Shown piece by piece: positions 1-48,021 of a stretch of 48,021 nt of DNA; positions within the stretch are counted from its first letter, which is position 1; every line of letters starts with the position of its first letter. The notes beneath the pieces are model-generated. The model was not told where the DNA came from and searched no databases. It worked only from the letters and a program-made list of their open reading frames with translations. The stretch is from Escherichia phage vB_Eco_CWW26. The translations under genes and the position numbers were made by a program. The stretch lies in sequence record PQ900155.1; one strand, written 5' to 3'.

Positions 1-300
1 TACTCGTCAACACCTCATTTTACCCCGAAATACCCGAGCTATCGGGGTGGTGAATTTACATTCACAATCATAGGTTTACGCGCATAACCGAAAACCCCGT
101 ACATTCTTCCCTTCTTCCTTCTTATAAACCTTATAAACTATACATTATGTATTATACTACATTTATACTATATATTATATACTTTCTATTACTACTAATT
201 ACTATTTTATAAGGGTATAAGGGTAATAAGTAGTATAGTACTGAAAGGTAAAGAGTTTTTGATACCCCGATGAAGTACCCCGAACGACTTTCAACGGGGT
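1..300. repeat. 300-bp direct repeat, copy A (hairpins, TACCCCGA iterons, ~130-bp AT-rich core)
   Basis: By eye, 1-300 matches 14844-15143; 47945-48021 matches 1-77 (genome wrap). Hairpin CCCCGA-N13-TCGGGG at 23-47; TACCCCGA at 21, 263, 276; AT-rich 111-240. Confidence 0.9.
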
Positions 301-4645: not shown

Positions 4646-4674
4646 ACTCTACTCCATACTGACGAGGCCGTCAA
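4646..4674 (-). promoter_or_regulatory. sigma70-like promoter, palindromic -35 (leftward)
   Basis: Minus strand reads TTGACG-gcctcgtcagtatggag-TAGAGT (17-bp spacer); palindrome CTGACGAGGCCGTCAA at 4659-4674; about 40 bp upstream of ATG 4610. Confidence 0.55.
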
Positions 4675-4676
4675 GC

Positions 4677-5462
4677 ATGTCACGACAAACAGAGCTAAAT
4701 TATTATCGCCAGCTGAAACAGGTTGCACAGCTTGTTCGTGAGGATGTGGACGCCAACATCGTCCCGCTGGTGAAACAGCTTGCGCCGGAGTACACGGCTG
4801 ACGGCTGGAGTGACACTATCACCTCGGCGATTAACCAGTTGCTCACACGGTGGCTTGGTGCGTTTGCTCGTCGTCAGGCTGAGACTATTGCGTCACAGTT
4901 TGTACAGACTGCGGCAAAGGATAACGCCCGCTCATTCGCTATCAATCTGTACGGCGGCGATACACAGCTACAGGAATATCTCAGCGCCGCATCGTATCAG
5001 AACGCTAAACTCATTCAGTCCATTCCGGCTCAGTATCTGGAGCAGGTGCAGAACATCGTCATGACCAACATGCGTAACGGTATGCGCCCCAGTTACATCG
5101 AGGAAGCACTTGTTAAACAATTTGGTATCACGGAGCGTCGTGCCAAACTTATCGCCCGGGACCAGACCAGTAAAATACAGGGCGATATGAACCGCATTCG
5201 CCAGACGAACAGCGGTATTGAGTATTTCAAATGGGTGACGTCACAGGATGAGCGGGTACGTCATAGCCACGTGGAGGTCGCCAAACGCGATGTGGGATTC
5301 GGTGAAGGTGTATTCCGCTGGGATGATTTGCCGGTTGTCGATGGTGTACCAACATTTCCGGGTCAGCCAATAAATTGCCGTTGTGTGGCGAGGCCAGTCA
5401 CAGCGGCACAGGTGGAGCGGAATAAAAGGGCCGGTAAAACCGACCCAAGTGTTAAGCGATGA
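4677..5462 (+). CDS. head morphogenesis protein (Mu gpF / SPP1 gp7-like)
   Basis: C-terminal motif RVRHSH...DG...P...NCRC typical of this family; ATG at 4677 (ORF track begins at GTG 4632, which would overlap the leftward promoter). Confidence 0.65.
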   Translation: MSRQTELNYYRQLKQVAQLVREDVDANIVPLVKQLAPEYTADGWSDTITSAINQLLTRWLGAFARRQAETIASQFVQTAAKDNARSFAINLYGGDTQLQEYLSAASYQNAKLIQSIPAQYLEQVQNIVMTNMRNGMRPSYIEEALVKQFGITERRAKLIARDQTSKIQGDMNRIRQTNSGIEYFKWVTSQDERVRHSHVEVAKRDVGFGEGVFRWDDLPVVDGVPTFPGQPINCRCVARPVTAAQVERNKRAGKTDPSVKR

Positions 5463-5742
5463 TACCGTCGACCACTTTGTACCATTGCTCTTTAATATTA
5501 TCCAGTCGTGCTATATGTCTGGTAATTTGAGTTTCAAGATGAGCATGTGCACCCAGTAAACTACCAAATAACACCCATTTATCTTTGTGCATGTGAATGT
5601 GGACACCTGCGTTTTTACCAGTTCTGACGAAATCATATGAATTTTTATAGCTTCTATTCACATATCCTACAATGATTTCCGCTTGTGATATCTCATCGAT
5701 ATTTATTGGTAACGCAAATCTTATCTCTATCTCTTGCGTCAT
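5452..5742 (-). CDS. hypothetical protein (96 aa)
   Basis: ORF track; last gene of a leftward cassette; His-rich segment GVHIHMH...GAHAHLE. Confidence 0.4.
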   Translation of the reverse strand: MTQEIEIRFALPINIDEISQAEIIVGYVNRSYKNSYDFVRTGKNAGVHIHMHKDKWVLFGSLLGAHAHLETQITRHIARLDNIKEQWYKVVDGIIA

Positions 5743-5852
5743 TATTTACCCTTCCACGTTTCAATTAAACTTTCAATACCCAGGAACAGTAAGTAGCCAA
5801 ATACCAACGTTCCGAACCAGTGGTCAGCAATGAAGTTGAGTACGTCAATCAT
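5742..5852 (-). CDS. small membrane protein (36 aa, putative)
   Basis: MIDVLNFIADHWFGTLVFGYLLFLGIESLIETWKGK; one hydrophobic helix; ATGA overlap with upstream gene. Confidence 0.3.
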   Translation of the reverse strand: MIDVLNFIADHWFGTLVFGYLLFLGIESLIETWKGK

Positions 5853-6037: not shown

Positions 6038-6234
6038 TAGCCCAACACCTTATTAACAAGTTGGTCCATCGCGGTCCATCGCTTAGATGCCGAACCATCC
6101 TCTTTAGTCGCGGTGAATGTCACAATATCCTCGAGGAAGTTCATTTTAAAGTTTGTCACAGTGATAACACCGTCTGCATCAATAATCCGGTCATTGTTGC
6201 GGAGCATTACCGCTTTAATTGGTTTATAGTTCAT
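6037..6234 (-). CDS. hypothetical protein (65 aa)
   Basis: ORF track; translationally coupled within the leftward cassette. Confidence 0.4.
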   Translation of the reverse strand: MNYKPIKAVMLRNNDRIIDADGVITVTNFKMNFLEDIVTFTATKEDGSASKRWTAMDQLVNKVLG

Positions 6235-6380
6235 TTTCCATACGCCTCACGTAATGCAGCATTAGCGAGCGCCCAATCATCATGCTTGCGCGCAAGCTGC
6301 TGTGCGGTCTGTAACAGTTCTTTATCAATGACCCGCGCCTCTGATACGGGGCGGTCGTAGCCAGGAAGTAATGTGTTCAT
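6231..6380 (-). CDS. hypothetical protein (49 aa)
   Basis: Hand-translated MNTLLPGYDRPVSEARVIDKELLQTAQQLARKHDDWALANAALREAYGK; GAGAGGG SD; stop overlaps next ATG; about 45 bp downstream of the promoter. Confidence 0.35.
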   Translation of the reverse strand: MNTLLPGYDRPVSEARVIDKELLQTAQQLARKHDDWALANAALREAYGK

Positions 6381-6411
6381 CTCTCAAACCCTCTCTGTTG
6401 TTGATGAATTA

Positions 6412-6441
6412 AGTATACGTCATCCCTGACGAACTCGTCAA
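6412..6441 (-). promoter_or_regulatory. sigma70-like promoter, palindromic -35 (leftward)
   Basis: Minus strand TTGACG-N18-TATACT; palindrome CTGACGAACTCGTCAA at 6426-6441. Confidence 0.5.
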
Positions 6442-7704: not shown

Positions 7705-7733
7705 ACTATGGCATACTCTGACGGACTCGTCAA
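7705..7733 (-). promoter_or_regulatory. sigma70-like promoter, palindromic -35 (leftward)
   Basis: Minus strand TTGACG-agtccgtcagagtatgc-CATAGT; palindrome CTGACGGACTCGTCAA at 7718-7733. Confidence 0.5.
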
Positions 7734-7734
7734 C

Positions 7735-8829
7735 ATGCAAATCACCGTAACGCACAATGACCGTAAAAGTTTTGCACTGAATTCCCAACGTGTTTACACG
7801 GATGAGGGATTTCTGCGTGTGCCGGGTAAAGCCGCTCGTACTGGTATTCAGGAATATCTCGCTTCGGAACTGGGACTGAAAGGTCGCGCACCGAACGACA
7901 TTATCCGTGTGTACCGTCCCGCCGAAGAAGTGTTTAATGATGAATCACTTCAGAGCTATCTCGGTGCAGATGTCACGAATAACCATCCTCCTACGCTTGT
8001 CAATGCTTCCACATACCGTAATACTTCCGTTGGTGTTGTAACGAGTGTCGGTCGTCAGGACGGCGATTTCGTCATTGTGGATATGGTTATCAAGGATAAA
8101 GACGCGATTAAGGCTGTCGAAACCGGTAAGTGTGAGTTGTCAGCGGGTTACACGGCGGTGTATGATGATACACCGGGGACAACGCCGGAAGGTGAACCAT
8201 ACGACTTCCGACAGACTCAGATTAAAATTAACCACGTTGCAATTGTTGACCGTGCTCGTGCGGGTGCAATGGCGCGTATCTTCGATAATATGGAGAAAAA
8301 ACCCATGTATCAAATCACCACTGACACCGGGCTAAAAGTTGATGTGGCGGATGCTGCGGTAGTAGACGCGTTCAAACGCTTGGAACAGCGTGTCAGTGAC
8401 GCCGAAGCCGCCAAAGAAACCGTACAGGCTCAACTCGACGCAGCAATGGAACAGGTTGCCGACCTGACCACTAAATGCAGCGACGAAGCCCTGAAAGCAC
8501 GCGTGGAAGCAATCGCACGTGTTACCTCCTCAGCGCGTAAAGTTGCTGGCGATGAATTCACCTGTGACAGCATGGACCCGGTTACAATCAAACGTGCCGC
8601 TCTCGCTGTTAAACGTCCGTCTGTTGACTGGGCTGAAAAATCTGCCGCCTATGTTGAAGCCGCTTTCGACATGGCTGTGGAAGAACCGGTGAAACCTGTG
8701 GTAGACTCACAGCTTGAGCAACTGGCTAAAGATGGTGCTAAAGACATCAAACAGCCGGTAGCCGACGCAAAACCTGTACTGTCCCGCGCACAAGAAGCAC
8801 TGCTGCGTCAGACTGGTAAACTTAAATAA
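7735..8829 (+). CDS. head scaffolding / prohead core protein (putative)
   Basis: Directly upstream of capsid genes; C-terminal Ala/Glu-rich helical region. Start ambiguous (7708 or 7735), no clear SD. Confidence 0.4.
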   Translation: MQITVTHNDRKSFALNSQRVYTDEGFLRVPGKAARTGIQEYLASELGLKGRAPNDIIRVYRPAEEVFNDESLQSYLGADVTNNHPPTLVNASTYRNTSVGVVTSVGRQDGDFVIVDMVIKDKDAIKAVETGKCELSAGYTAVYDDTPGTTPEGEPYDFRQTQIKINHVAIVDRARAGAMARIFDNMEKKPMYQITTDTGLKVDVADAAVVDAFKRLEQRVSDAEAAKETVQAQLDAAMEQVADLTTKCSDEALKARVEAIARVTSSARKVAGDEFTCDSMDPVTIKRAALAVKRPSVDWAEKSAAYVEAAFDMAVEEPVKPVVDSQLEQLAKDGAKDIKQPVADAKPVLSRAQEALLRQTGKLK

Positions 8830-14824: not shown

Positions 14825-14853
14825 AGTATATCAATGATTGACGTACTCGTCAA
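14825..14853 (-). promoter_or_regulatory. sigma70-like promoter, palindromic -35 (leftward)
   Basis: Minus strand TTGACG-agtacgtcaatcattga-TATACT (17-bp spacer); palindrome TTGACGTACTCGTCAA 14838-14853 straddles the repeat boundary. Confidence 0.6.
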
Positions 14854-15143
14854 CACCTCATTTTACCCCGAAATACCCGAGCTATCGGGGTGGTGAATTT
14901 ACATTCACAATCATAGGTTTACGCGCATAACCGAAAACCCCGTACATTCTTCCCTTCTTCCTTCTTATAAACCTTATAAACTATACATTATGTATTATAC
15001 TACATTTATACTATATATTATATACTTTCTATTACTACTAATTACTATTTTATAAGGGTATAAGGGTAATAAGTAGTATAGTACTGAAAGGTAAAGAGTT
15101 TTTGATACCCCGATGAAGTACCCCGAACGACTTTCAACGGGGT
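14844..15143. repeat. 300-bp direct repeat, copy B
   Basis: Matches 1-300 by eye; flanks diverge immediately outside. Confidence 0.9.
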
Positions 15144-18808: not shown

Positions 18809-18837
18809 ACTATAACCCACCTTGACGAGTCCGTCAA
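18809..18837 (-). promoter_or_regulatory. sigma70-like promoter, palindromic -35 (leftward)
   Basis: Minus strand TTGACG-gactcgtcaaggtgggt-TATAGT; palindrome TTGACGAGTCCGTCAA 18822-18837. Confidence 0.6.
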
Positions 18838-35822: not shown

Positions 35823-35851
35823 ATACTACGTTGGTTTGACGAGTACGTCAA
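35823..35851 (-). promoter_or_regulatory. sigma70-like promoter, palindromic -35 (leftward)
   Basis: Minus strand TTGACG-tactcgtcaaaccaacg-TAGTAT; palindrome TTGACGAGTACGTCAA 35836-35851; 5'UTR hairpin GGGAGAC-N5-GTCTCCC. Confidence 0.55.
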
Positions 35852-38654: not shown

Positions 38655-38683
38655 ACTCTATATCACCATGACGCAACCGTCAA
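38655..38683 (-). promoter_or_regulatory. sigma70-like promoter, palindromic -35 (leftward)
   Basis: Minus strand TTGACG-gttgcgtcatggtgata-TAGAGT; + strand palindrome ATGACGCAACCGTCAA 38668-38683. Confidence 0.5.
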
Positions 38684-38697
38684 CACTAATTTTAAAT

Positions 38698-38726
38698 TTG
38701 ACACGGGGTGGGTGGTGCGACATAAT
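38698..38726 (+). promoter_or_regulatory. sigma70-like promoter (rightward)
   Basis: TTGACA-cggggtgggtggtgcga-CATAAT (17-bp spacer), about 35 bp upstream of ATG 38761. Confidence 0.55.
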
Positions 38727-39315: not shown

Positions 39316-40955
39316 TACCAACACTCCGACCCTATCAGGAAAAACTGGTCAAAGACACGTACCAGCAGTGGGACGCCGGTAAGCAGTTTGTGGCAATGGT
39401 GAGCGCTACCGGCTCCGGCAAGTCAATGACCCTGACCGCTATTGTCGCAAAAGAGCGTGACCGGGGTCAGTATGTGCTGGTGCTGGCGCATCGTCAGGAG
39501 CTTATAACACAGTTGAGCGACACGATGGGACGTATGGAAATCCGCCACCAGGTTATCGCTGCTAATAAAGTGGTACGCTTCGCCGCTAAACAGTCGATGG
39601 AAAACCACGGGGTTAATTATGTTGACCCGAATGCGCGGGTAATGGTTGCGTCCGTACAATCAATGCGTGAGGCTAAAATTGCTGACCTGGCAAAGCTGGG
39701 TAATAAGCTGACCGTTGTGCAGGATGAATTCCACCATGCCACGAAGAAATCGAAGACCTGGGGAGGTGTGCTGACACCCCTGCTTAACGCTGGTGCACGC
39801 GGACTTGGACCGACCGCCACACCTTGTCGTGCGGATGGACAGGGTTTATCACGCGAGACGGACGGTTACGCGGATGTGATTGTTGAAGGTCCGTCAATGC
39901 GCTGGCTTATCGACAACGGATATCTTAGTCAGTACAAAATTTACTGCCCGCCGACCGACCTACAACTGGATAACGTGGAAACCAGTAAAACCACGGGGGA
40001 CTATAAAGAGAAGGAACTCAAAGCGGAGATTGGGCGTTCACATATCGTCGGCGACATTGTGAGTCACTATCTCAAAATCTGCCCGGGTAAACGCGGCATC
40101 ACCTTTACCGTCGGCGTGGATACGGCAGAGGAAGTAGCGGAAGAATATCGTAAGCGTGGTGTACCAGCAATTGCATTGTCCGGGCGCAATGCAGATGAAG
40201 AACGTGTACAGGCTATCCGTGATTTGAAGTCTGGAAAGATTTTGCAAATTGTTAATGATTCGTTAATAGGGGAAGGAGTGGACATTCCCGCAGTGGAAGT
40301 AGTGTCTTTCGCCAGACCGACACAGAGTTATGCACTTTATGCACAAATGTTCGGTCGTGCGCTGCGTCCGTTCGAGGGAAAATCACACGCTATCATTATC
40401 GACGCAGTATCAAACGTCATGCGCCACGGTTTACCGGATGCACCGCGTGAGTGGAGTCTTGACCGTCGGGAGCGTCGCACGGGTAAAAGTGAACCATCGA
40501 CGGTGCGCGTGTGTACAGCTTGCGCGGCAGTGTATGAGCGGTTCCGTGACGCATGTCCGGACTGCGGTGAGCCTGTACCTAAACCGGCGCAACGTAGTGG
40601 TCCAGAGTTTGTAGACGGTGACCTTTACGAGCTTGACCCGGACGTACTGGCGCAGATGCGTAATGAGGTTGTGGGGGCACGTGAGACACCCGAGGCAATG
40701 CGTGACAGACTGACCGCACAACATGCGCCGCCTGCTGGAGTAATGGCTAACGTCAAACGTCAGAGAGAAAGGCTTGACGCGCTCGTCAAATTGGACCTAA
40801 AATTAGCGGAGTGGGCCGGGTATCGTCGTGCGGAAGGTCTGAGCGACAATGAAATATTTCGCAAGTTTTACCTGACGTATGGCGTGTCATGGCTGGAGGC
40901 GCAGGCGCTCAAATCGGCTGATGCGGATAAATTAAGAGAGAGGATTGGGTTATGA
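39312..40955 (+). CDS. SF2 DNA helicase (DEAD/DEAH-like)
   Basis: Walker A SATGSGKS; motif II VVQDEFHH; C-terminal zinc-ribbon-like CTACAAVYERFRDACPDCGEP. Confidence 0.65.
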   Translation: MIPTLRPYQEKLVKDTYQQWDAGKQFVAMVSATGSGKSMTLTAIVAKERDRGQYVLVLAHRQELITQLSDTMGRMEIRHQVIAANKVVRFAAKQSMENHGVNYVDPNARVMVASVQSMREAKIADLAKLGNKLTVVQDEFHHATKKSKTWGGVLTPLLNAGARGLGPTATPCRADGQGLSRETDGYADVIVEGPSMRWLIDNGYLSQYKIYCPPTDLQLDNVETSKTTGDYKEKELKAEIGRSHIVGDIVSHYLKICPGKRGITFTVGVDTAEEVAEEYRKRGVPAIALSGRNADEERVQAIRDLKSGKILQIVNDSLIGEGVDIPAVEVVSFARPTQSYALYAQMFGRALRPFEGKSHAIIIDAVSNVMRHGLPDAPREWSLDRRERRTGKSEPSTVRVCTACAAVYERFRDACPDCGEPVPKPAQRSGPEFVDGDLYELDPDVLAQMRNEVVGARETPEAMRDRLTAQHAPPAGVMANVKRQRERLDALVKLDLKLAEWAGYRRAEGLSDNEIFRKFYLTYGVSWLEAQALKSADADKLRERIGL

Positions 40956-41251
40956 GCAATATGTGCGACTGTCATTCCTGTGGTCTAAGAAGTAGTGCGG
41001 CACCCGAAAAGAACAAGGAATACGAAAAAATAATCAATATGTTAATCGACTCTGGTGGGGAGAAACAACTTGTTGAGTTAATTAGAATTTTTACGAATAA
41101 AATTTCCACGGAAATATCCACATCTCGTGGTCCGAATCTGCTTGCATATGAAAACAAAGAATTAGCACGAGTAGATGTAATTACGCGGGCAGCTGAACAA
41201 TTGAAAAGTCTTCTCACCTCTCGCATTCAGGATGGGGGTGACACAAAATGA
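40952..41251 (+). CDS. hypothetical protein (99 aa, AT-rich codons)
   Basis: ORF track; ATGA overlap with helicase. Confidence 0.4.
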   Translation: MSNMCDCHSCGLRSSAAPEKNKEYEKIINMLIDSGGEKQLVELIRIFTNKISTEISTSRGPNLLAYENKELARVDVITRAAEQLKSLLTSRIQDGGDTK

Positions 41252-41721
41252 CACCAACACTTCTCGAATGGCAACGTAAGCACGGTATCACGGCTGAGGC
41301 GCTGGCTGACCTTGTGACAATGGTGGGACTGGATGTCCCACGCTCAACCAAAGATACGCCCGAAGCGCGTGTACAGGATGAGGCGCGACTGCTGGCAAGT
41401 AAGATGGGCTGGCGACTTTTTCGCAATAATGTGGGTGTCCTGAAGGATGAGCGGGGTGTACCGGTACGTTACGGTATCGCAAATGACTCCCCGGCGATGA
41501 ACAAACGTATCAAGTCAAGCGACCTCATCGGCATTCGCCCCGTGGTTATCACACCCGATATGGTCGGGTCAACCATTGGTCAGTTTGTGGCGCGTGAGGT
41601 GAAAAAAGCCGGGTGGAAGTATAAAGGTACGGAACACGAAAAGGCACAGCTCGCATTTGGGACGCTGATTATCGGGCTGGGCGGTGATTTTAAATTTTAT
41701 AGTGGTGAGGGGGAATTGTGA
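41248..41721 (+). CDS. VRR-NUC domain nuclease
   Basis: LFRNNVGV...RYGIANDSPAM...SDLIGIRP...QFVAREVKKAG matches VRR-NUC (PD-(D/E)xK). Confidence 0.6.
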   Translation: MTPTLLEWQRKHGITAEALADLVTMVGLDVPRSTKDTPEARVQDEARLLASKMGWRLFRNNVGVLKDERGVPVRYGIANDSPAMNKRIKSSDLIGIRPVVITPDMVGSTIGQFVAREVKKAGWKYKGTEHEKAQLAFGTLIIGLGGDFKFYSGEGEL

Positions 41722-41996
41722 TGGCTGTTATTACACTTGAGCAAATTATCGAACTTCAATATCGAAGACACAACAACGTGTCGAATCAACAATTCAAACA
41801 ACTTAACGGAAAATATTCTTCCAGAGGTTTGAGAAATGCGCACCGTTACGCCGATATTGAGCGCCACAAATGTTGGCCACGCGGTAAAACTTATTACCGT
41901 CTCTACCGTCGCCAGATGAATCCACACATCAACTTTACTGTTTCACCGGGTCATCCGGACAGATATAAACACATGTCGTTGCGGATGTGGAGTTGA
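41718..41996 (+). CDS. hypothetical basic protein (92 aa)
   Basis: ORF track; ATGA overlap with VRR-NUC gene. Confidence 0.4.
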   Translation: MMAVITLEQIIELQYRRHNNVSNQQFKQLNGKYSSRGLRNAHRYADIERHKCWPRGKTYYRLYRRQMNPHINFTVSPGHPDRYKHMSLRMWS

Positions 41997-42050
41997 CCAC
42001 TCCGTCAACCTGTGCCATACTGCAACAAATTACCTAATGGAACCGAACTC

Positions 42051-42329
42051 ATGAGCAAAGAGCATATTTTAGAAGTAGCTTACACGATGGCACAGCGCGA
42101 CGGCTTTGGTACTCTTACCCGCGATGGTGTCGCTGCCGAGGCTGGTGTGGCGATGGGAAGCGTTAACCATCACTGGGGTAAGATGTCCGCACTTCGTGAA
42201 GCAGTGATGCAACGGGCGGTAGAAGAAGAAAACCTCGAATTGATTGGGCAGGGGATGGCGCTGGGTGATAGCGTTGCCAAATCCGCCCCACTGGAGCTAC
42301 GCACACGCGCGTTGACAACCCTGCTTTAA
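42051..42329 (+). CDS. small HTH protein (TetR-type N-terminal HTH, no ligand domain)
   Basis: SKEHILEVAYTMAQRDGFGTLTRDGVAAEAGVAMGSVNHHWGKMSALREAV fits the TetR HTH pattern; ATG at 42051 (ORF-track frame 42012). Confidence 0.45.
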   Translation: MSKEHILEVAYTMAQRDGFGTLTRDGVAAEAGVAMGSVNHHWGKMSALREAVMQRAVEEENLELIGQGMALGDSVAKSAPLELRTRALTTLL

Positions 42330-42353
42330 TAACTAAAACAGAGAGAGACAGAG

Positions 42354-44711
42354 ATGACACATGTGAATCCCCCGGTGCAGGGGGCCGATTCCCTGCACTT
42401 TATCGTCTGCAAAACAGTATCTTCACAGAAGAAGCCCGGGCGCACGGAGAAGATGCCATGTAATGCCGCTGGTGATGTAGTCAGTCTGCACGTTGCGGAC
42501 CGTATGACTCATGCTCAGGCGGTTGCGGCGGCTTCTGCACTGGGTGAGTCATATCGCCCCGCAGTCATTCTCACGGGTGACGGTCGTTTCTGCGTGGATA
42601 TCGACGGTGCACTACAGGATGATAACACCTGGTCACCGCTCGCGCTGGAGTTGTGCACCACTTTTGCCGGTTGTTACGTGGAAGTGAGTAACAGCGGTAA
42701 AGGCTTGCACATTTTTGGTTACAGTCCGTCCATCCCTGAGCATAGCTGTAAAAATATTTCGCTGCACATCGAACTGTACACGTCTGACCGTTTTATCTGT
42801 CTGGGAAGTGGTGCACGGGGTGACATGATGTTTAACGCGTCTGTACCACTCAACGCCACGGTTGCACGTTATTTCCCACAGACCGAGCAAGTTACGGCGA
42901 CGGAATGGACCACAACTCACGTCGAAGGCTCATGTCCGATTGAGGACGATGCGAAACTCATCGAAAAAGCCTGTTCGAGTAAAGGTGGTGTCGCGGCTGT
43001 TTTCGGTGGCAAAGCAACATTCAAAGACCTGTGGACGCGTAATGTTGAGGTACTGAGTGATGCGTATCCAGATGAGGACCGCGAGTATGACGGGTCGAGC
43101 GCCGATGCCGCACTGGCCCAACATTTATCGTTCTGGACCGGTGGTAACTGTGAACGTATCGAACGCCTGATGTGTCTGTCTGCGCTGGCACGTCCTAAAT
43201 GGGACAGTCACAAATCGTACATGCGACGTACCATTCTGGGTGCTTGCGCGCGTCAGACAACTTATTACAGTGTCGGCGCACCGATTGAACTGGTGACCCC
43301 TGCTCAGGTCATTGAGACGGGTGCACCAGTTATCCGCAGTGGGTATCAATTTATTGGTGGCTCGCAGCTTGTTGACCACTTCAAAGGTTGTGTATATGTG
43401 GCAGACAGTCACCGTATTCTCACCCCCAACGGTCAGATGCTGAAGTCTGAGCAGTTTAACGCGATGTACGGTGGCTATGTGTTTGCGCTGGATGATGGTA
43501 ATGAGAAGACCACTAAAAAGGCTTTCGAAGCGTTCACCGAGAACCAGTGTATCATGTTTCCGAAAGTTGACCGCTCAACGTTCCGTCCGGACCTGCCGCA
43601 GGGTGCTATCATCGAAGAAGATGGTCTGCGTCATGTCAACGCATACGTACCGGTGACAGTAGCAAGCGTCCCGGGCGATGTGACACCTTTCCTTACTCAT
43701 CTGGCCAAACTGTTACCCGTCGAGCGTGACCGCGACATCCTGCTGTCCTACATGGCAGCATGCGTACAGTACAAAGGGACCAAGTTCAAATGGGCACCAT
43801 TGTTGCAGGGCGTCGAGGGTAACGGTAAAACACTGTTCACACTGTGCGTAATGGAAGCGGTTGGTTCACGCTACAGCCACATGCCGCCAGCGCAGGAAAT
43901 CGGTGAGAAGTTCAACGCCTGGCTGTTCGATAAAATATTTATCGGCGTGGAAGATATTTACGTTCCGGAGCAGAAACTTGAACTGATTGAAACACTCAAG
44001 CCAATGATTACCGGTGAGTACCTCGCTAAGCGTGCGATGCAGCAGGACCAGGTAATGCACCGCCTGTGTGCTAACTTCATGTTTAACAGTAACCACAAGA
44101 ACGCCGTGCGCAAGACCGCTAATGACCGCCGGTTCGCTATTTTCTACACCGCGCAGCAGGAGCATATGGACATTGTGCGCGATGGCATGGGTGGCGACTA
44201 CTTCCCCAACCTGTACGACTGGCTCAAACGTGGCGGTGGATTTGCAGCCGTAACGCATTATCTGGAGAACTACGCCATTCCCGCACAACTTAACCCGGCG
44301 ACACATTGTCAGCGTGCCCCGGAAACAAGTAGCACCCATGAGGCTGTGACAGCATCGCTCGGTAGTGTCGAGCAGGAAATCATGGAAGCAATCGACGAGG
44401 GTCGCCAGGGCTTTGCGGGCGGTTGGGTGAGTAGTAAGGCACTGGATAATCTGTTACGCCAGATGCGCGCTGACCGCGCTGTACCGGTAGGTAAACGTCG
44501 TGACATGATGCGTCAACTGGGTTACGACTGGCACCCGGCGCTTAAAGACGGACGTGTGAACAATGTGATAATGATTGACGGTGGTAAGCCGCGGTTGTAC
44601 ATCAAGATTGGACACATTCACGCTAACCTCACAAATGCGGCGGACGTGGCGCGCCATTACGCAGCGGCACAGGGTGATACAAGTGCGTTAGCCTTTGCAG
44701 AAACTAAATAA
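42354..44711 (+). CDS. primase-polymerase (AEP) fused to SF3/D5-like helicase
   Basis: AEP motifs CVDIDG and SNSGKGLHIFG in N-terminal half; Walker A GVEGNGKT in C-terminal half. Confidence 0.65.
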   Translation: MTHVNPPVQGADSLHFIVCKTVSSQKKPGRTEKMPCNAAGDVVSLHVADRMTHAQAVAAASALGESYRPAVILTGDGRFCVDIDGALQDDNTWSPLALELCTTFAGCYVEVSNSGKGLHIFGYSPSIPEHSCKNISLHIELYTSDRFICLGSGARGDMMFNASVPLNATVARYFPQTEQVTATEWTTTHVEGSCPIEDDAKLIEKACSSKGGVAAVFGGKATFKDLWTRNVEVLSDAYPDEDREYDGSSADAALAQHLSFWTGGNCERIERLMCLSALARPKWDSHKSYMRRTILGACARQTTYYSVGAPIELVTPAQVIETGAPVIRSGYQFIGGSQLVDHFKGCVYVADSHRILTPNGQMLKSEQFNAMYGGYVFALDDGNEKTTKKAFEAFTENQCIMFPKVDRSTFRPDLPQGAIIEEDGLRHVNAYVPVTVASVPGDVTPFLTHLAKLLPVERDRDILLSYMAACVQYKGTKFKWAPLLQGVEGNGKTLFTLCVMEAVGSRYSHMPPAQEIGEKFNAWLFDKIFIGVEDIYVPEQKLELIETLKPMITGEYLAKRAMQQDQVMHRLCANFMFNSNHKNAVRKTANDRRFAIFYTAQQEHMDIVRDGMGGDYFPNLYDWLKRGGGFAAVTHYLENYAIPAQLNPATHCQRAPETSSTHEAVTASLGSVEQEIMEAIDEGRQGFAGGWVSSKALDNLLRQMRADRAVPVGKRRDMMRQLGYDWHPALKDGRVNNVIMIDGGKPRLYIKIGHIHANLTNAADVARHYAAAQGDTSALAFAETK

Positions 44712-44735
44712 GCCCTTCGGGGCTTTTTTTTTTTT
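44711..44735 (+). terminator. rho-independent terminator after primase-helicase
   Basis: AGCCC-TTCG-GGGCT followed by T12. Confidence 0.75.
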
Positions 44736-44745
44736 GCAATTAGTG

Positions 44746-44774
44746 TTGACGAGTTCGTCAATGGGGAGTATAGT
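44746..44774 (+). promoter_or_regulatory. sigma70-like promoter, palindromic -35 (rightward)
   Basis: TTGACG-agttcgtcaatggggag-TATAGT (17-bp spacer); palindrome TTGACGAGTTCGTCAA 44746-44761; about 30 bp upstream of ATG 44805. Confidence 0.65.
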
Positions 44775-44804
44775 TAGTTCATCGACAACAGAGAGGTGAT
44801 GAAG

Positions 44805-44912
44805 ATGAGCAAGAAAACACAATTTTCAGTAAGCAACTACCATAACGAGCACGTCATGCGCTGGCACTGGCAGAAACTCAAAGAGCGCTACCTGGCAACG
44901 CAGGGTAAATAA
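44805..44912 (+). CDS. hypothetical small protein (35 aa)
   Basis: Hand-translated MSKKTQFSVSNYHNEHVMRWHWQKLKERYLATQGK; GAGAGGTGA SD; followed by hairpin GCGCCAC-CGAA-GTGGCGC. Confidence 0.35.
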   Translation: MSKKTQFSVSNYHNEHVMRWHWQKLKERYLATQGK

Positions 44913-44956
44913 ATAACATAGCGCCACCGAAGTGGCGCATAACCAGAGATAAGACC

Positions 44957-45130
44957 ATGAAAAACATTATCAATCATCACAAATTGTCTGACCTTCTGCG
45001 TGATATGACCGAGGTTCAGGCGTTGAACGCACTGTCACGTATGCGCACACAAGCTGACCGGGAGGGACTGTGTGTCACTCGTCTCATTGTTGAAGGTAAA
45101 GTTGTGGAGCAATGGATATGGAAACATTGA
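44957..45130 (+). CDS. hypothetical small protein (57 aa)
   Basis: Hand-translated MKNIINHHKLSDLLRDMTEVQALNALSRMRTQADREGLCVTRLIVEGK...; weak SD. Confidence 0.3.
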   Translation: MKNIINHHKLSDLLRDMTEVQALNALSRMRTQADREGLCVTRLIVEGKVVEQWIWKH

Positions 45131-45333
45131 GTTATTGTCAGCTGATGGAGCGCATGTTAGCGGCTGAAGCGCGGGTGGTGGAACTGGAGAAATATAAAGC
45201 TGCATTTATAACGTGGCAAGACAAAACAGAATGGGTACAGAAGGATTCACGCTTTGACATTTTATTACCCTGGGGTAAACATCGCGCGGACGTACTGAAA
45301 GAGTACATTGAATTGCTGGAGCGTAAACCATGA
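45112..45333 (+). CDS. hypothetical protein (73 aa)
   Basis: ORF track; coupled (ATGA) to downstream gene. Confidence 0.4.
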   Translation: MDMETLSYCQLMERMLAAEARVVELEKYKAAFITWQDKTEWVQKDSRFDILLPWGKHRADVLKEYIELLERKP

Positions 45334-45626
45334 TTAAATATTTACCACTTGTAGCGCTCCTGGTGGGCGCTCAGGTTAACGCAGCTGTTACTGCTGAAAC
45401 AAATGAGTCACAGGTTGCTAACCTGCTCTTTAACGGCTGTAGCGCTCAACGTGCACAAATGGGCGTACAGGAAATTATTAAACAGGCTAACCCCGGCGGC
45501 AATCCAGCAGTGACTGACCTTATCATCAAAGGTTACAAGTTCGGCATTGATTACCCGAACGTCGGATGTAACCAGTTCTTCACGGTTGTCATTGACCAGT
45601 TAGTTAAAAGCCGGAGTAAAGCGTAA
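45330..45626 (+). CDS. small secreted / periplasmic protein with signal peptide
   Basis: MIKYLPLVALLVGAQVNAAVTAE signal-peptide-like N-terminus; two Cys in mature part. Confidence 0.45.
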   Translation: MIKYLPLVALLVGAQVNAAVTAETNESQVANLLFNGCSAQRAQMGVQEIIKQANPGGNPAVTDLIIKGYKFGIDYPNVGCNQFFTVVIDQLVKSRSKA

Positions 45627-47924: not shown

Positions 47925-47954
47925 ACTATAAAATAATAGAGAATTACTCGTCAA
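47925..47954 (-). promoter_or_regulatory. sigma70-like promoter, half-palindrome -35 at repeat boundary (leftward)
   Basis: Minus strand TTGACG-N18-TATAGT; -35 is the first 10 nt of repeat copy C; the second half-site is absent here. Confidence 0.45.
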
Positions 47955-48021
47955 CACCTCATTTTACCCCGAAATACCCGAGCTATCGGGGTGGTGAATT
48001 TACATTCACAATCATAGGTTT
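47945..48021. repeat. start of 300-bp repeat (wrap-around copy of 1-77)
   Basis: 47945-48021 matches 1-77 by eye; implies a 47,944-bp circular or permuted unit. Confidence 0.9.

Follow-up and report, generated by a model that had tools for sequence, protein, structure and literature searches.

Gp78, a single-domain TetR-type protein of Escherichia phage ZCEC13, is the best candidate for a factor acting on a dyad of early promoters

The TetR family is defined by a helix-turn-helix (HTH) joined to a ligand-sensing dimerisation core, and full-length proteins such as TetR, QacR, EilR and AmvR have 164-420 amino acids (aa), a ligand pocket and a four-helix dimer interface. The stretch of DNA analysed here (Escherichia phage vB_Eco_CWW26, PQ900155.1; 48,021 bp, hereafter the window) has exactly the sequence of the complete genome of Escherichia phage ZCEC13 (ON086804 / NC_071140, genus Jedunavirus). 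Its gene gp78 encodes a minimal TetR-like protein (mini-TetR) of 92 residues that has neither pocket nor interface. Judged from sequence, gp78 would be the best candidate for a factor that turns off some twelve early promoters by acting on the 16-bp dyad which they contain.

Two described systems come closest. RutR of Escherichia coli, a TetR-family protein, binds the 16-bp box TTGACCAnnTGGTCAA, in which positions 4 (A) and 13 (T) are critical (PMC2475637). The outer TTGAC-N6-GTCAA is the same in the phage, every phage dyad keeps the bases at 4 and 13 and the match reaches 10-12 of 14 positions, but the inner positions 6/11 are C/G in the RutR box and G/C in the phage. A pair of TetR HTHs can therefore read this outer dyad and its spacing. 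RutR also differs in sensing uracil through its C-terminal domain, and gp78 gives no match at E <= 0.01 to the NCBIfam RutR models TIGR03613 and NF011584, to which distant members of the mini-TetR family score 20-24 bits (cut-offs 230-368). Proteins of the Cro type from phages lambda and P22 resemble gp78 in being small (60-100 aa) HTH proteins devoid of an effector domain and encoded in the early rightward operon. They bind dyads over divergent early promoters and lower early transcription as they accumulate, an arrangement similar to that of the ZCEC13 region with the dyads at 38668 and 38725. The likeness is functional and positional only: gp78 has no sequence relationship to Cro or cI, TetR_N being its sole Pfam match, and the ZCEC13 regulon would comprise ~12 dispersed promoters as opposed to two operator clusters. 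Neither an integrase nor a cI-type repressor is found in the ZCEC13 annotation.

The gene call and the TetR family label of gp78 are already public, the product being identical to YP_010684649.1 of ZCEC13 (RefSeq label 'TetR family transcriptional regulator'). Apparently no description exists so far of the shortened architecture, of how large the family is or of its connection with the early-promoter dyad; in the literature we found no analysis of the mini-TetR or of the dyad, and Comeau et al. 2012 lists only a 'tetR-like cellular regulator'. Pfam TetR_N (PF00440) matches residues 6-52 of gp78 with 31.3 bits (E = 1.7e-7; gathering cut-off 24), and no other Pfam domain is found at E <= 1. The ratio of nonsynonymous to synonymous substitution rates of the gene, taken against seven IMG/VR relatives, is 0.07-0.20, which shows that it is under strong purifying selection and that its protein is functional. 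The leader of gp78 is predicted to be unstructured. A GTG start at 42012, giving 105 aa, was ruled out since the predicted -10 (42016-42021) is downstream of it and homologues lend it no support. An earlier note on this DNA had described a TetR-type HTH protein of about 92 aa lacking a ligand-binding domain, placed in the early rightward operon before the primase gene. The Pfam match, the predicted fold and the length bear out the first part of this description; the position in the rightward replication (early) cluster, with the primase gene 24 nt downstream, bears out the second.

The AlphaFold model of gp78 built with 78 diverse family sequences has seven helices, a predicted local distance difference test score (pLDDT) of 97.9 and a predicted template modelling score of 0.89. 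It supersedes a first AlphaFold2 model based on 20 close homologues (pLDDT 74), in which the HTH was poor and the Foldseek result meaningless. The HTH that the earlier note expected is thus found in the model, as a DNA-binding-domain fold of the TetR type. This predicted fold corresponds solely to the N-terminal half of full-length TetR proteins, all its structural matches being 164-420 aa long. A profile search of the PDB aligns residues 3-59 exclusively to TetR-family chains, and the NCBIfam models of full-length TetR proteins match over just their first 60-66 positions (20-34 bits against cut-offs of 144-300); no curated NCBIfam model covers gp78 beyond the HTH. The C-terminal regulatory core of ~100-150 aa, which holds the ligand pocket and the dimer interface, is absent, and three short helices follow helix 4. 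According to the model, gp78 is a DNA-binding domain with the first short core helices and without the helices of ligand pocket and dimer interface, which refines the earlier view of an N-terminal domain only: the ligand and dimer helices are indeed missing, and the first short core helices are retained as well. The missing core makes the usual induction by a ligand improbable for gp78, and two copies would have to pair by other means. The conserved C-terminal helices, together with natural tandem fusions described below, suggest a pairing mode unlike the classical TetR four-helix bundle.

The sequence TTGACG-N4-CGTCAA occurs 12 times in the window with at most one mismatch, against 0.20 copies expected, and none of 100 shuffles reached this number. 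The relaxed form TTGAC-N6-GTCAA (at most one mismatch) has 13 sites, and a -10-like hexamer lies 16-18 bp past one half-site in 11 of them (background rate 10.5%; binomial P ~1e-9), as anticipated by the earlier note, which had many copies of the palindrome at promoters. When the sites are laid out by their best -10, the order is TTGACG (-35), four free bases, CGTCA(A/G), seven bases and a -10 such as TATAGT, TATACT, TAGAGT or CATACT, at a spacing of 17 bp, occasionally 18. The dyad is the -35 to -20 segment of sigma-70-type promoters, and a generic promoter scan independently picks up those at 38683 (minus strand), 40774, 41993 and 44746. Eight dyad promoters are directed leftward, serving minus-strand islands among the structural genes, the polymerase/exonuclease operon and tiny open reading frames (ORFs) left of 23698; three are directed rightward (40774, 41993 and 44746). 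They precede non-structural genes only, none standing ahead of a structural or lysis gene. The enrichment extends to all 30 Jedunavirus loci of IMG/VR, which have 6-12 copies of the dyad within 10-20 kb.

The informative part of the dyad is the inverted half-site, with CGTCA at -25 to -21; it falls within -25 to -20, where sigma-70 makes no base-specific contacts. This half-site is invariant and the central four bases are variable, which is the signature of a protein-bound dyad. An RNA element or terminator was rejected as the nature of the palindrome, there being no Rfam match in the window, no predicted structure in the gp78 leader and no T runs after the dyads; the sole overlap of the terminator scan with a dyad is a chance match at 40790-40773.

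Comparison with related phages links the dyad to the mini-TetR. TTGAC-N6-GTCAA sites (at most one mismatch) number 13 in ZCEC13, 15 in Pantoea phage AAM22, 13 in Vibrio phage CP-T1 and 13 in Edwardsiella phage PEi21, against 1.2-1.4 in shuffles, and the mini-TetRs of these four phages share 34-49% identity. Vibrio phage 1.243.O and Pectobacterium phage ZF40, which are devoid of mini-TetR, have one dyad each, the level expected by chance; they share the tail sheath and the overall order of structural genes, and their replication modules differ. In all four genera, and likewise in metagenomic contig L008, the mini-TetR gene is immediately preceded by a promoter that contains the dyad. Among 28 distinct Jedunavirus upstream regions TTGACCA, CCGTCAA and CATACT are invariant, the central bases vary and the left flank is unrelated. 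The non-structural genes common to the four phages are those for the polymerase, gp65, gp66, gp68, the helicase, the nuclease, the mini-TetR and the primase; within this core the mini-TetR alone has a recognisable DNA-binding domain. The first genes of the rightward operons are mutually non-homologous and no HTH was found in their products.

The recognition helix of gp78 provides a further link. In clades where this helix reads G[ST][VI]NH[HN][WFY], position 11 of the dyad is C in 67/67 promoter dyads, and in clades with GTVSFAF, GIVSYYY or GQVNHIF the position is degenerate. At the sequence level this covariation of the inner dyad base with the recognition helix is suggestive only. Each genome of the NH[HN]-helix clades has C at position 6 in one promoter dyad, the operator of its own mini-TetR; in ZCEC13 this is the putative auto-operator at 41993, where the other promoter dyads have G. 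His40 of gp78 aligns with His47 of EilR, which contacts a base in the EilR-operator crystal structure. A one-to-one code between recognition helix and outer dyad was sought and not found, as the helices of CP-T1 and PEi21 differ and the outer TTGAC/GTCAA is the same.

The proposal of the earlier note that gp78 binds the promoter palindrome gains from the co-occurrence of gene and dyad, the dyad in the gene's own promoter, the lack of a rival conserved protein predicted to bind DNA, the geometry of the site and the covariation with helix alpha3; we infer binding from these elements together. Several points weigh against it. The canonical TetR dimer interface is missing in gp78. Half of the palindrome is the -35 hexamer itself and is explained by the -35 consensus alone. 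The covariation is based on few independent clades. The promoter dyad is not enriched with distant homologues (166-aa tandem forms, siphoviruses Psp6 and R9Y1), and dyad specificity is therefore not a property of the whole family. The literature on this phage group yielded no binding, footprint, transcription-start or expression data. Two more points, the recognition helices of CP-T1 and PEi21 that are substantially unlike that of ZCEC13 despite the same outer dyad, and the conservation of gp68 (339 aa, phrog_11133 'unknown function') likewise in all four dyad-bearing phages, also speak for a different binder.

The dyad could indeed be occupied by another phage protein, either gp68 or a small fast-evolving early protein, gp78 having a narrower or different job on its own operon only, in the replication module or at host operators. 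The tight linkage of the mini-TetR to the helicase-primase module, even where dyads are not enriched, would fit such a division of tasks. We hold it to be rather unlikely. No DNA-binding domain is detected in gp68 by Pfam or NCBIfam and the first genes of early operons are neither conserved nor HTH-bearing, whereas the dyad stands in the mini-TetR's own promoter in every genus examined and its inner bases covary with the gp78 recognition helix.

Binding by a host regulator, with RutR as the obvious enterobacterial candidate and gp78 either irrelevant or a competitor, draws on the similarity of the boxes: of the 14 RutR consensus positions the phage dyads have 10 in common, the critical 4 and 13 among them, and the site upstream of gp78, TTGACCACTCCGTCAA, has 12. 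RutR could in principle occupy some of the sites. As an explanation this is improbable, since enrichment of the dyad extends across phages of Vibrio, Edwardsiella, Pantoea and Klebsiella/E. coli and follows the phage gene, not the host; the TetR-less Vibrio and Pectobacterium phages show no enrichment, and the inner G/C, invariant at positions 6 and 11, reverses the C/G of RutR. Hardly probable either is a dyad with no dedicated binder, which would be an intrinsic promoter feature or a conserved linker at recombination boundaries used for cassette exchange. Mosaic boundaries do fall exactly at the left edge of the dyad, an exact 300-bp repeat begins within the central four bases of the 14838 dyad, and the -35 hexamer accounts for half of the sequence. 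Against this explanation, the second half-site is invariant where sigma-70 contacts no bases and the central four bases vary as they do in protein-bound dyads; the 38725 dyad lies at -10/+1 and not at a -35; and back-to-back divergent -35 boxes were rejected since at most sites no -10 is found on the opposite strand, and promoters lacking a gene on the other side retain the full dyad. Least probable of all is that gp78 binds the dyad as an activator or as a replication-origin or primase-loading factor: the mini-TetR gene does adjoin the primase gene throughout the family and CP-T1 has an iteron-like array of twelve 15-bp repeats after its mini-TetR gene (PMC3391216), but near-consensus -35 and -10 boxes at 17-bp spacing have no need of an activator, the dyad centre near -27.5 overlaps sigma-70 contacts, the dyads are dispersed across the genome and not clustered as in an origin, and ZCEC13 has no tandem-repeat array near gp78 (~42 kb).

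We favour, as a probable account, that gp78 is a TetR-derived single-domain repressor that binds the dyad and shuts off early promoters in a ligand-independent, Cro-like manner. Such a derivative would have kept the HTH and the first core helices and lost the pocket and dimer helices. Two copies would sit on the 16-bp TTGACG-N4-CGTCAA, the half-site centres being 10 bp apart and both half-sites thus on one face of the helix, with a weak or DNA-assisted dimerisation through the conserved C-terminal helices. In about ten sigma-70 promoters of near-consensus sequence the dyad takes up -35 to -20, and in the main rightward promoter it covers the -10/+1 region, so that occupancy by gp78 would exclude sigma-70 region 4 or open-complex formation and repress transcription. 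These near-consensus promoters should fire with host RNA polymerase alone, and for a binder centred near -27.5 over the -35 repression would be the sole possible effect. The genes placed under this control, all non-structural, would be those of the leftward islands, of the polymerase/exonuclease operon and of the rightward helicase-TetR-primase cluster. As gp78 would itself be made from a dyad promoter, its accumulation would shut off early/middle transcription and autoregulate the TetR-primase operon; the C at position 6 of the auto-operator would fit a weaker site that is filled last. Lacking a ligand domain, gp78 would act as a concentration-driven timer, Cro-like in function.

Should gp78 indeed bind the dyad, the early-to-late switch of the whole group would be accounted for by a single tiny protein with a single 16-bp site, and this explanation would extend to relatives infecting Vibrio, Edwardsiella and Pantoea. 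Jedunaviruses are repeatedly isolated as candidate therapeutic phages against Klebsiella, and we found no published account of the timing of their gene expression. A family of thousands with the front half only of TetR raises the question of how its members pair on DNA, and mini-TetRs could offer very small ligand-free repressor/operator pairs for synthetic biology. A bolder generalisation, which we regard as doubtful, is that there exists a large unrecognised class of minimal TetR proteins, made of ~95-aa modules and tandem two-HTH fusions and borne by a widespread phage replication module (DNA polymerase A, DUF2800, helicase, DUF5906 primase), that act as ligand-independent master repressors of an early-promoter regulon through a dyad embedding the -35 and with a new mode of dimerisation on DNA. 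More speculative is that the mini-TetR might also occupy host RutR sites, because the dyad is nearly identical to the RutR box, and rewire pyrimidine metabolism during infection.

Table 1. Gp78, putative control elements and neighbouring features in the window (nucleotide positions unless stated otherwise).
Feature	Position	Strand	Remarks
gp78, mini-TetR	42051-42329	+	ATG start, TAA stop, 92 aa
Predicted helices of gp78	residues 3-17, 24-31, 35-42, 45-58, 62-70, 74-77, 81-91		24-31 and 35-42 form the helix-turn-helix; recognition helix 35-42
Predicted promoter of TetR-primase operon	41993-42021	+	-35 TTGACC, 17-bp spacer, TG-extended -10 CATACT (42016-42021); predicted transcription start near 42028
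Dyad TTGACCACTCCGTCAA, putative auto-operator	41993-42008	.	Over -35 and spacer, 43 nt upstream of gp78 ATG
Dyad in leftward promoter, gp09-gp07 island	4659-4674	-	-10 TAGAGT
Dyad in leftward promoter, gp15-gp11	6426-6441	-	-10 TATACT
Dyad in leftward promoter, gp19-gp16	7718-7733	-	-10 CATAGT
Dyad in leftward promoter, gp30-gp28 including dUTPase	14838-14853	-	-10 TATACT
Dyad in leftward promoter, gp39-gp38	18822-18837	-	-10 TATAGT
Dyad TTGACGTGATTGTCAA	23698-23713	-	Weaker leftward -10 (AATTAT)
Dyad in leftward promoter, gp65-gp60 including DNA polymerase	35836-35851	-	-10 TAGTAT; counterparts in PEi21, CP-T1 and tandem-type contigs L009 and L054
Dyad in main leftward early promoter, gp69-gp66	38668-38683	-	-10 TAGAGT
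Main rightward early promoter	38698-38726	+	TTGACA, 17-bp spacer, CATAAT; 11/12 consensus positions, strongest rightward
Dyad ATGACGCCATCGTCAA	38725-38740	.	Over -10 end and start site of rightward early promoter; 57 bp from 38668 dyad
Dyad in internal rightward promoter	40774-40789	+	-10 TAAAAT, 18-bp spacer; near 3' end of helicase gene; equivalents in AAM22 (38687) and CP-T1 (9812)
Primase gp79	42354-44711	+	NrS-1 polymerase HBD and DUF5906 domains; starts 24 nt after gp78
Intrinsic terminator AAGCCCTTCGGGGCTT followed by T run	44710-44725	+	Ends TetR-primase transcript
Dyad in rightward promoter	44746-44761	+	-10 TATAGT; just past primase terminator; equivalents in AAM22, PEi21, L008 and L009

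Homologues of gp78 are abundant. A HMMER search of 1.84 billion cluster representatives (50% identity) gave 2,104 matches at E <= 1e-3, of which 630 reach E <= 1e-10. Among the best 150 matches the majority have ~90-120 aa with near-complete coverage of the query, and ~40 belong to tandem forms (162-179 aa) that match in two stretches, in which an extra HTH module is fused ahead of a complete mini-TetR unit. The best 120 matches of a word-indexed search are all of 92-93 aa with at least 78% identity, many of them on phage-sized contigs (45-52 kb). The C-terminal third of the family has the motif IAQGLAxGxxxAxxAPxxLKxxA, which is present in gp78. The protein matches PHROG phrog_8723 at E = 1.6e-38; this group is labelled 'unknown function' and its 251-position profile spans the tandem two-HTH forms too. 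Homologues with 30-52% identity were found by tblastn in Pantoea phage AAM22, Vibrio phages CP-T1 and 24, Edwardsiella phages PEi21 and MSW-3, and others. This search locates the mini-TetR in 65 Klebsiella phage records (96 records overall). A megablast search with window positions 41000-45000 against the phage collection finds DNA shared with 207 records, of which 196 are Klebsiella phages, a set that may include many phages sharing a small part only.

The position of the gene is conserved within the replication module. Gp79 is probably co-transcribed with gp78, since the promoter and terminator scan found neither element in the 24-nt gap between them. The order helicase-nuclease-miniTetR-primase is maintained, with the DUF2800/DNA polymerase A operon opposite, and the mini-TetR lies between helicase/nuclease and DUF5906 primase in myoviruses AAM22, CP-T1 and PEi21, in Shewanella phage SppYZU01, in siphovirus Psp6 and in metagenomic contigs L008, L009, L010 and L054. 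Alteromonas siphovirus R9Y1 is an exception: it keeps helicase-nuclease-TetR, but its nuclease and TetR genes flank a methylase gene, and its primase gene lies at another place and on the opposite strand. The family unit can be defined as a module of ~90-115 aa, with a TetR HTH and the C-terminal motif, encoded between helicase/nuclease and DUF5906 primase, and gp78 belongs to it. Tandem forms of ~165 aa (P0131, P0133, P0136, P0319; L005 38065-38565; L009 10001-10501; L054 8001-8504) occupy the same position in the replication module, their extra part consisting of an HTH plus helix 4 ahead of the complete mini-TetR unit. In the divergent control regions of L009 and L054, TTGACG and CGTCAA (GTCAA in L009) are ~30 bp apart, not 4-6. 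Pseudomonas phage Psp6 (MG251388) has 12 TTGAC-N6-GTCAA sites (at most one mismatch) against ~1 in shuffles; they lie mostly inside annotated coding sequences with no convincing -10 and could reflect codon or composition bias or be real binding sites.

Phage 1.243.O (MG592608) has nine CRP-like TGTGA-N6-TCACA sites, at 2625, 2899, 5046, 7318, 20532, 22850, 25288, 32813 and 46504. It also has minus-strand islands, and TGTGA-N6-TCACA is found at most of the equivalent junctions. At 2899, 5046, 20532 and 25288 the sequence TATACT precedes the dyad, with leftward islands on one side and rightward structural genes on the other. A different regulator/operator pair appears to operate there within the same genome architecture.

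Several observations concern the surroundings of the ZCEC13 promoters. Downstream of the -10 of dyad promoters, and ahead of the start codons of the early transcripts, CA-rich leaders like CATCRACAACAGAGAG recur (for instance near 6390, 18780, 38640 and 44785, and also in PEi21) and may be a shared leader or ribosome-binding context. Late head genes have ATG codons 1-3 nt past dyads: that of gp10 stands at 4677, and the protease gene gp20 has an in-frame one at 7735 (positions 4674-4679 and 7733-7737). Without a rightward promoter at the 4674 and 7733 junctions, late rightward transcription would read the leftward islands in antisense. The annotated starts of gp20 (7687) and gp30 (14853) are probably too far upstream. 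A leftward promoter for gp88 at 47925-47954 (minus strand; TTGACG, 18-bp spacer, TATAGT) retains one dyad half-site (GAGAAT TACT CGTCAA), the other apparently having been lost at a repeat boundary.

The 300-bp dispersed repeat mentioned above makes window positions 1-300 identical to 14844-15143. It is AT-rich, has a CCCCGA..TCGGGG hairpin and a GTGAAT-N4-ATTCAC dyad, and lies upstream of the terminase genes and of neck/tail genes; a role as late promoter/leader or in packaging is possible. The window closes with a copy of its positions 1-77 (47945-48021), suggestive of an assembly overlap or of a terminal repeat. Several very short ORFs have implausible RefSeq names: 'NADH-ubiquinone oxidoreductase chain 3' for 36 aa, 'glycosyltransferase' for 49 aa, 'transketolase protein' for 98 aa, and 'Molybdopterin guanine dinucleotide synthesis protein B' for 99 aa with no Pfam match (the ORFs so named include 5742-5852, 6231-6380, 40952-41251 and 45330-45626). 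Tiny ORFs such as gp70 (29 aa) and gp80 (21 aa) overlap predicted promoters. All this looks like over-annotation.
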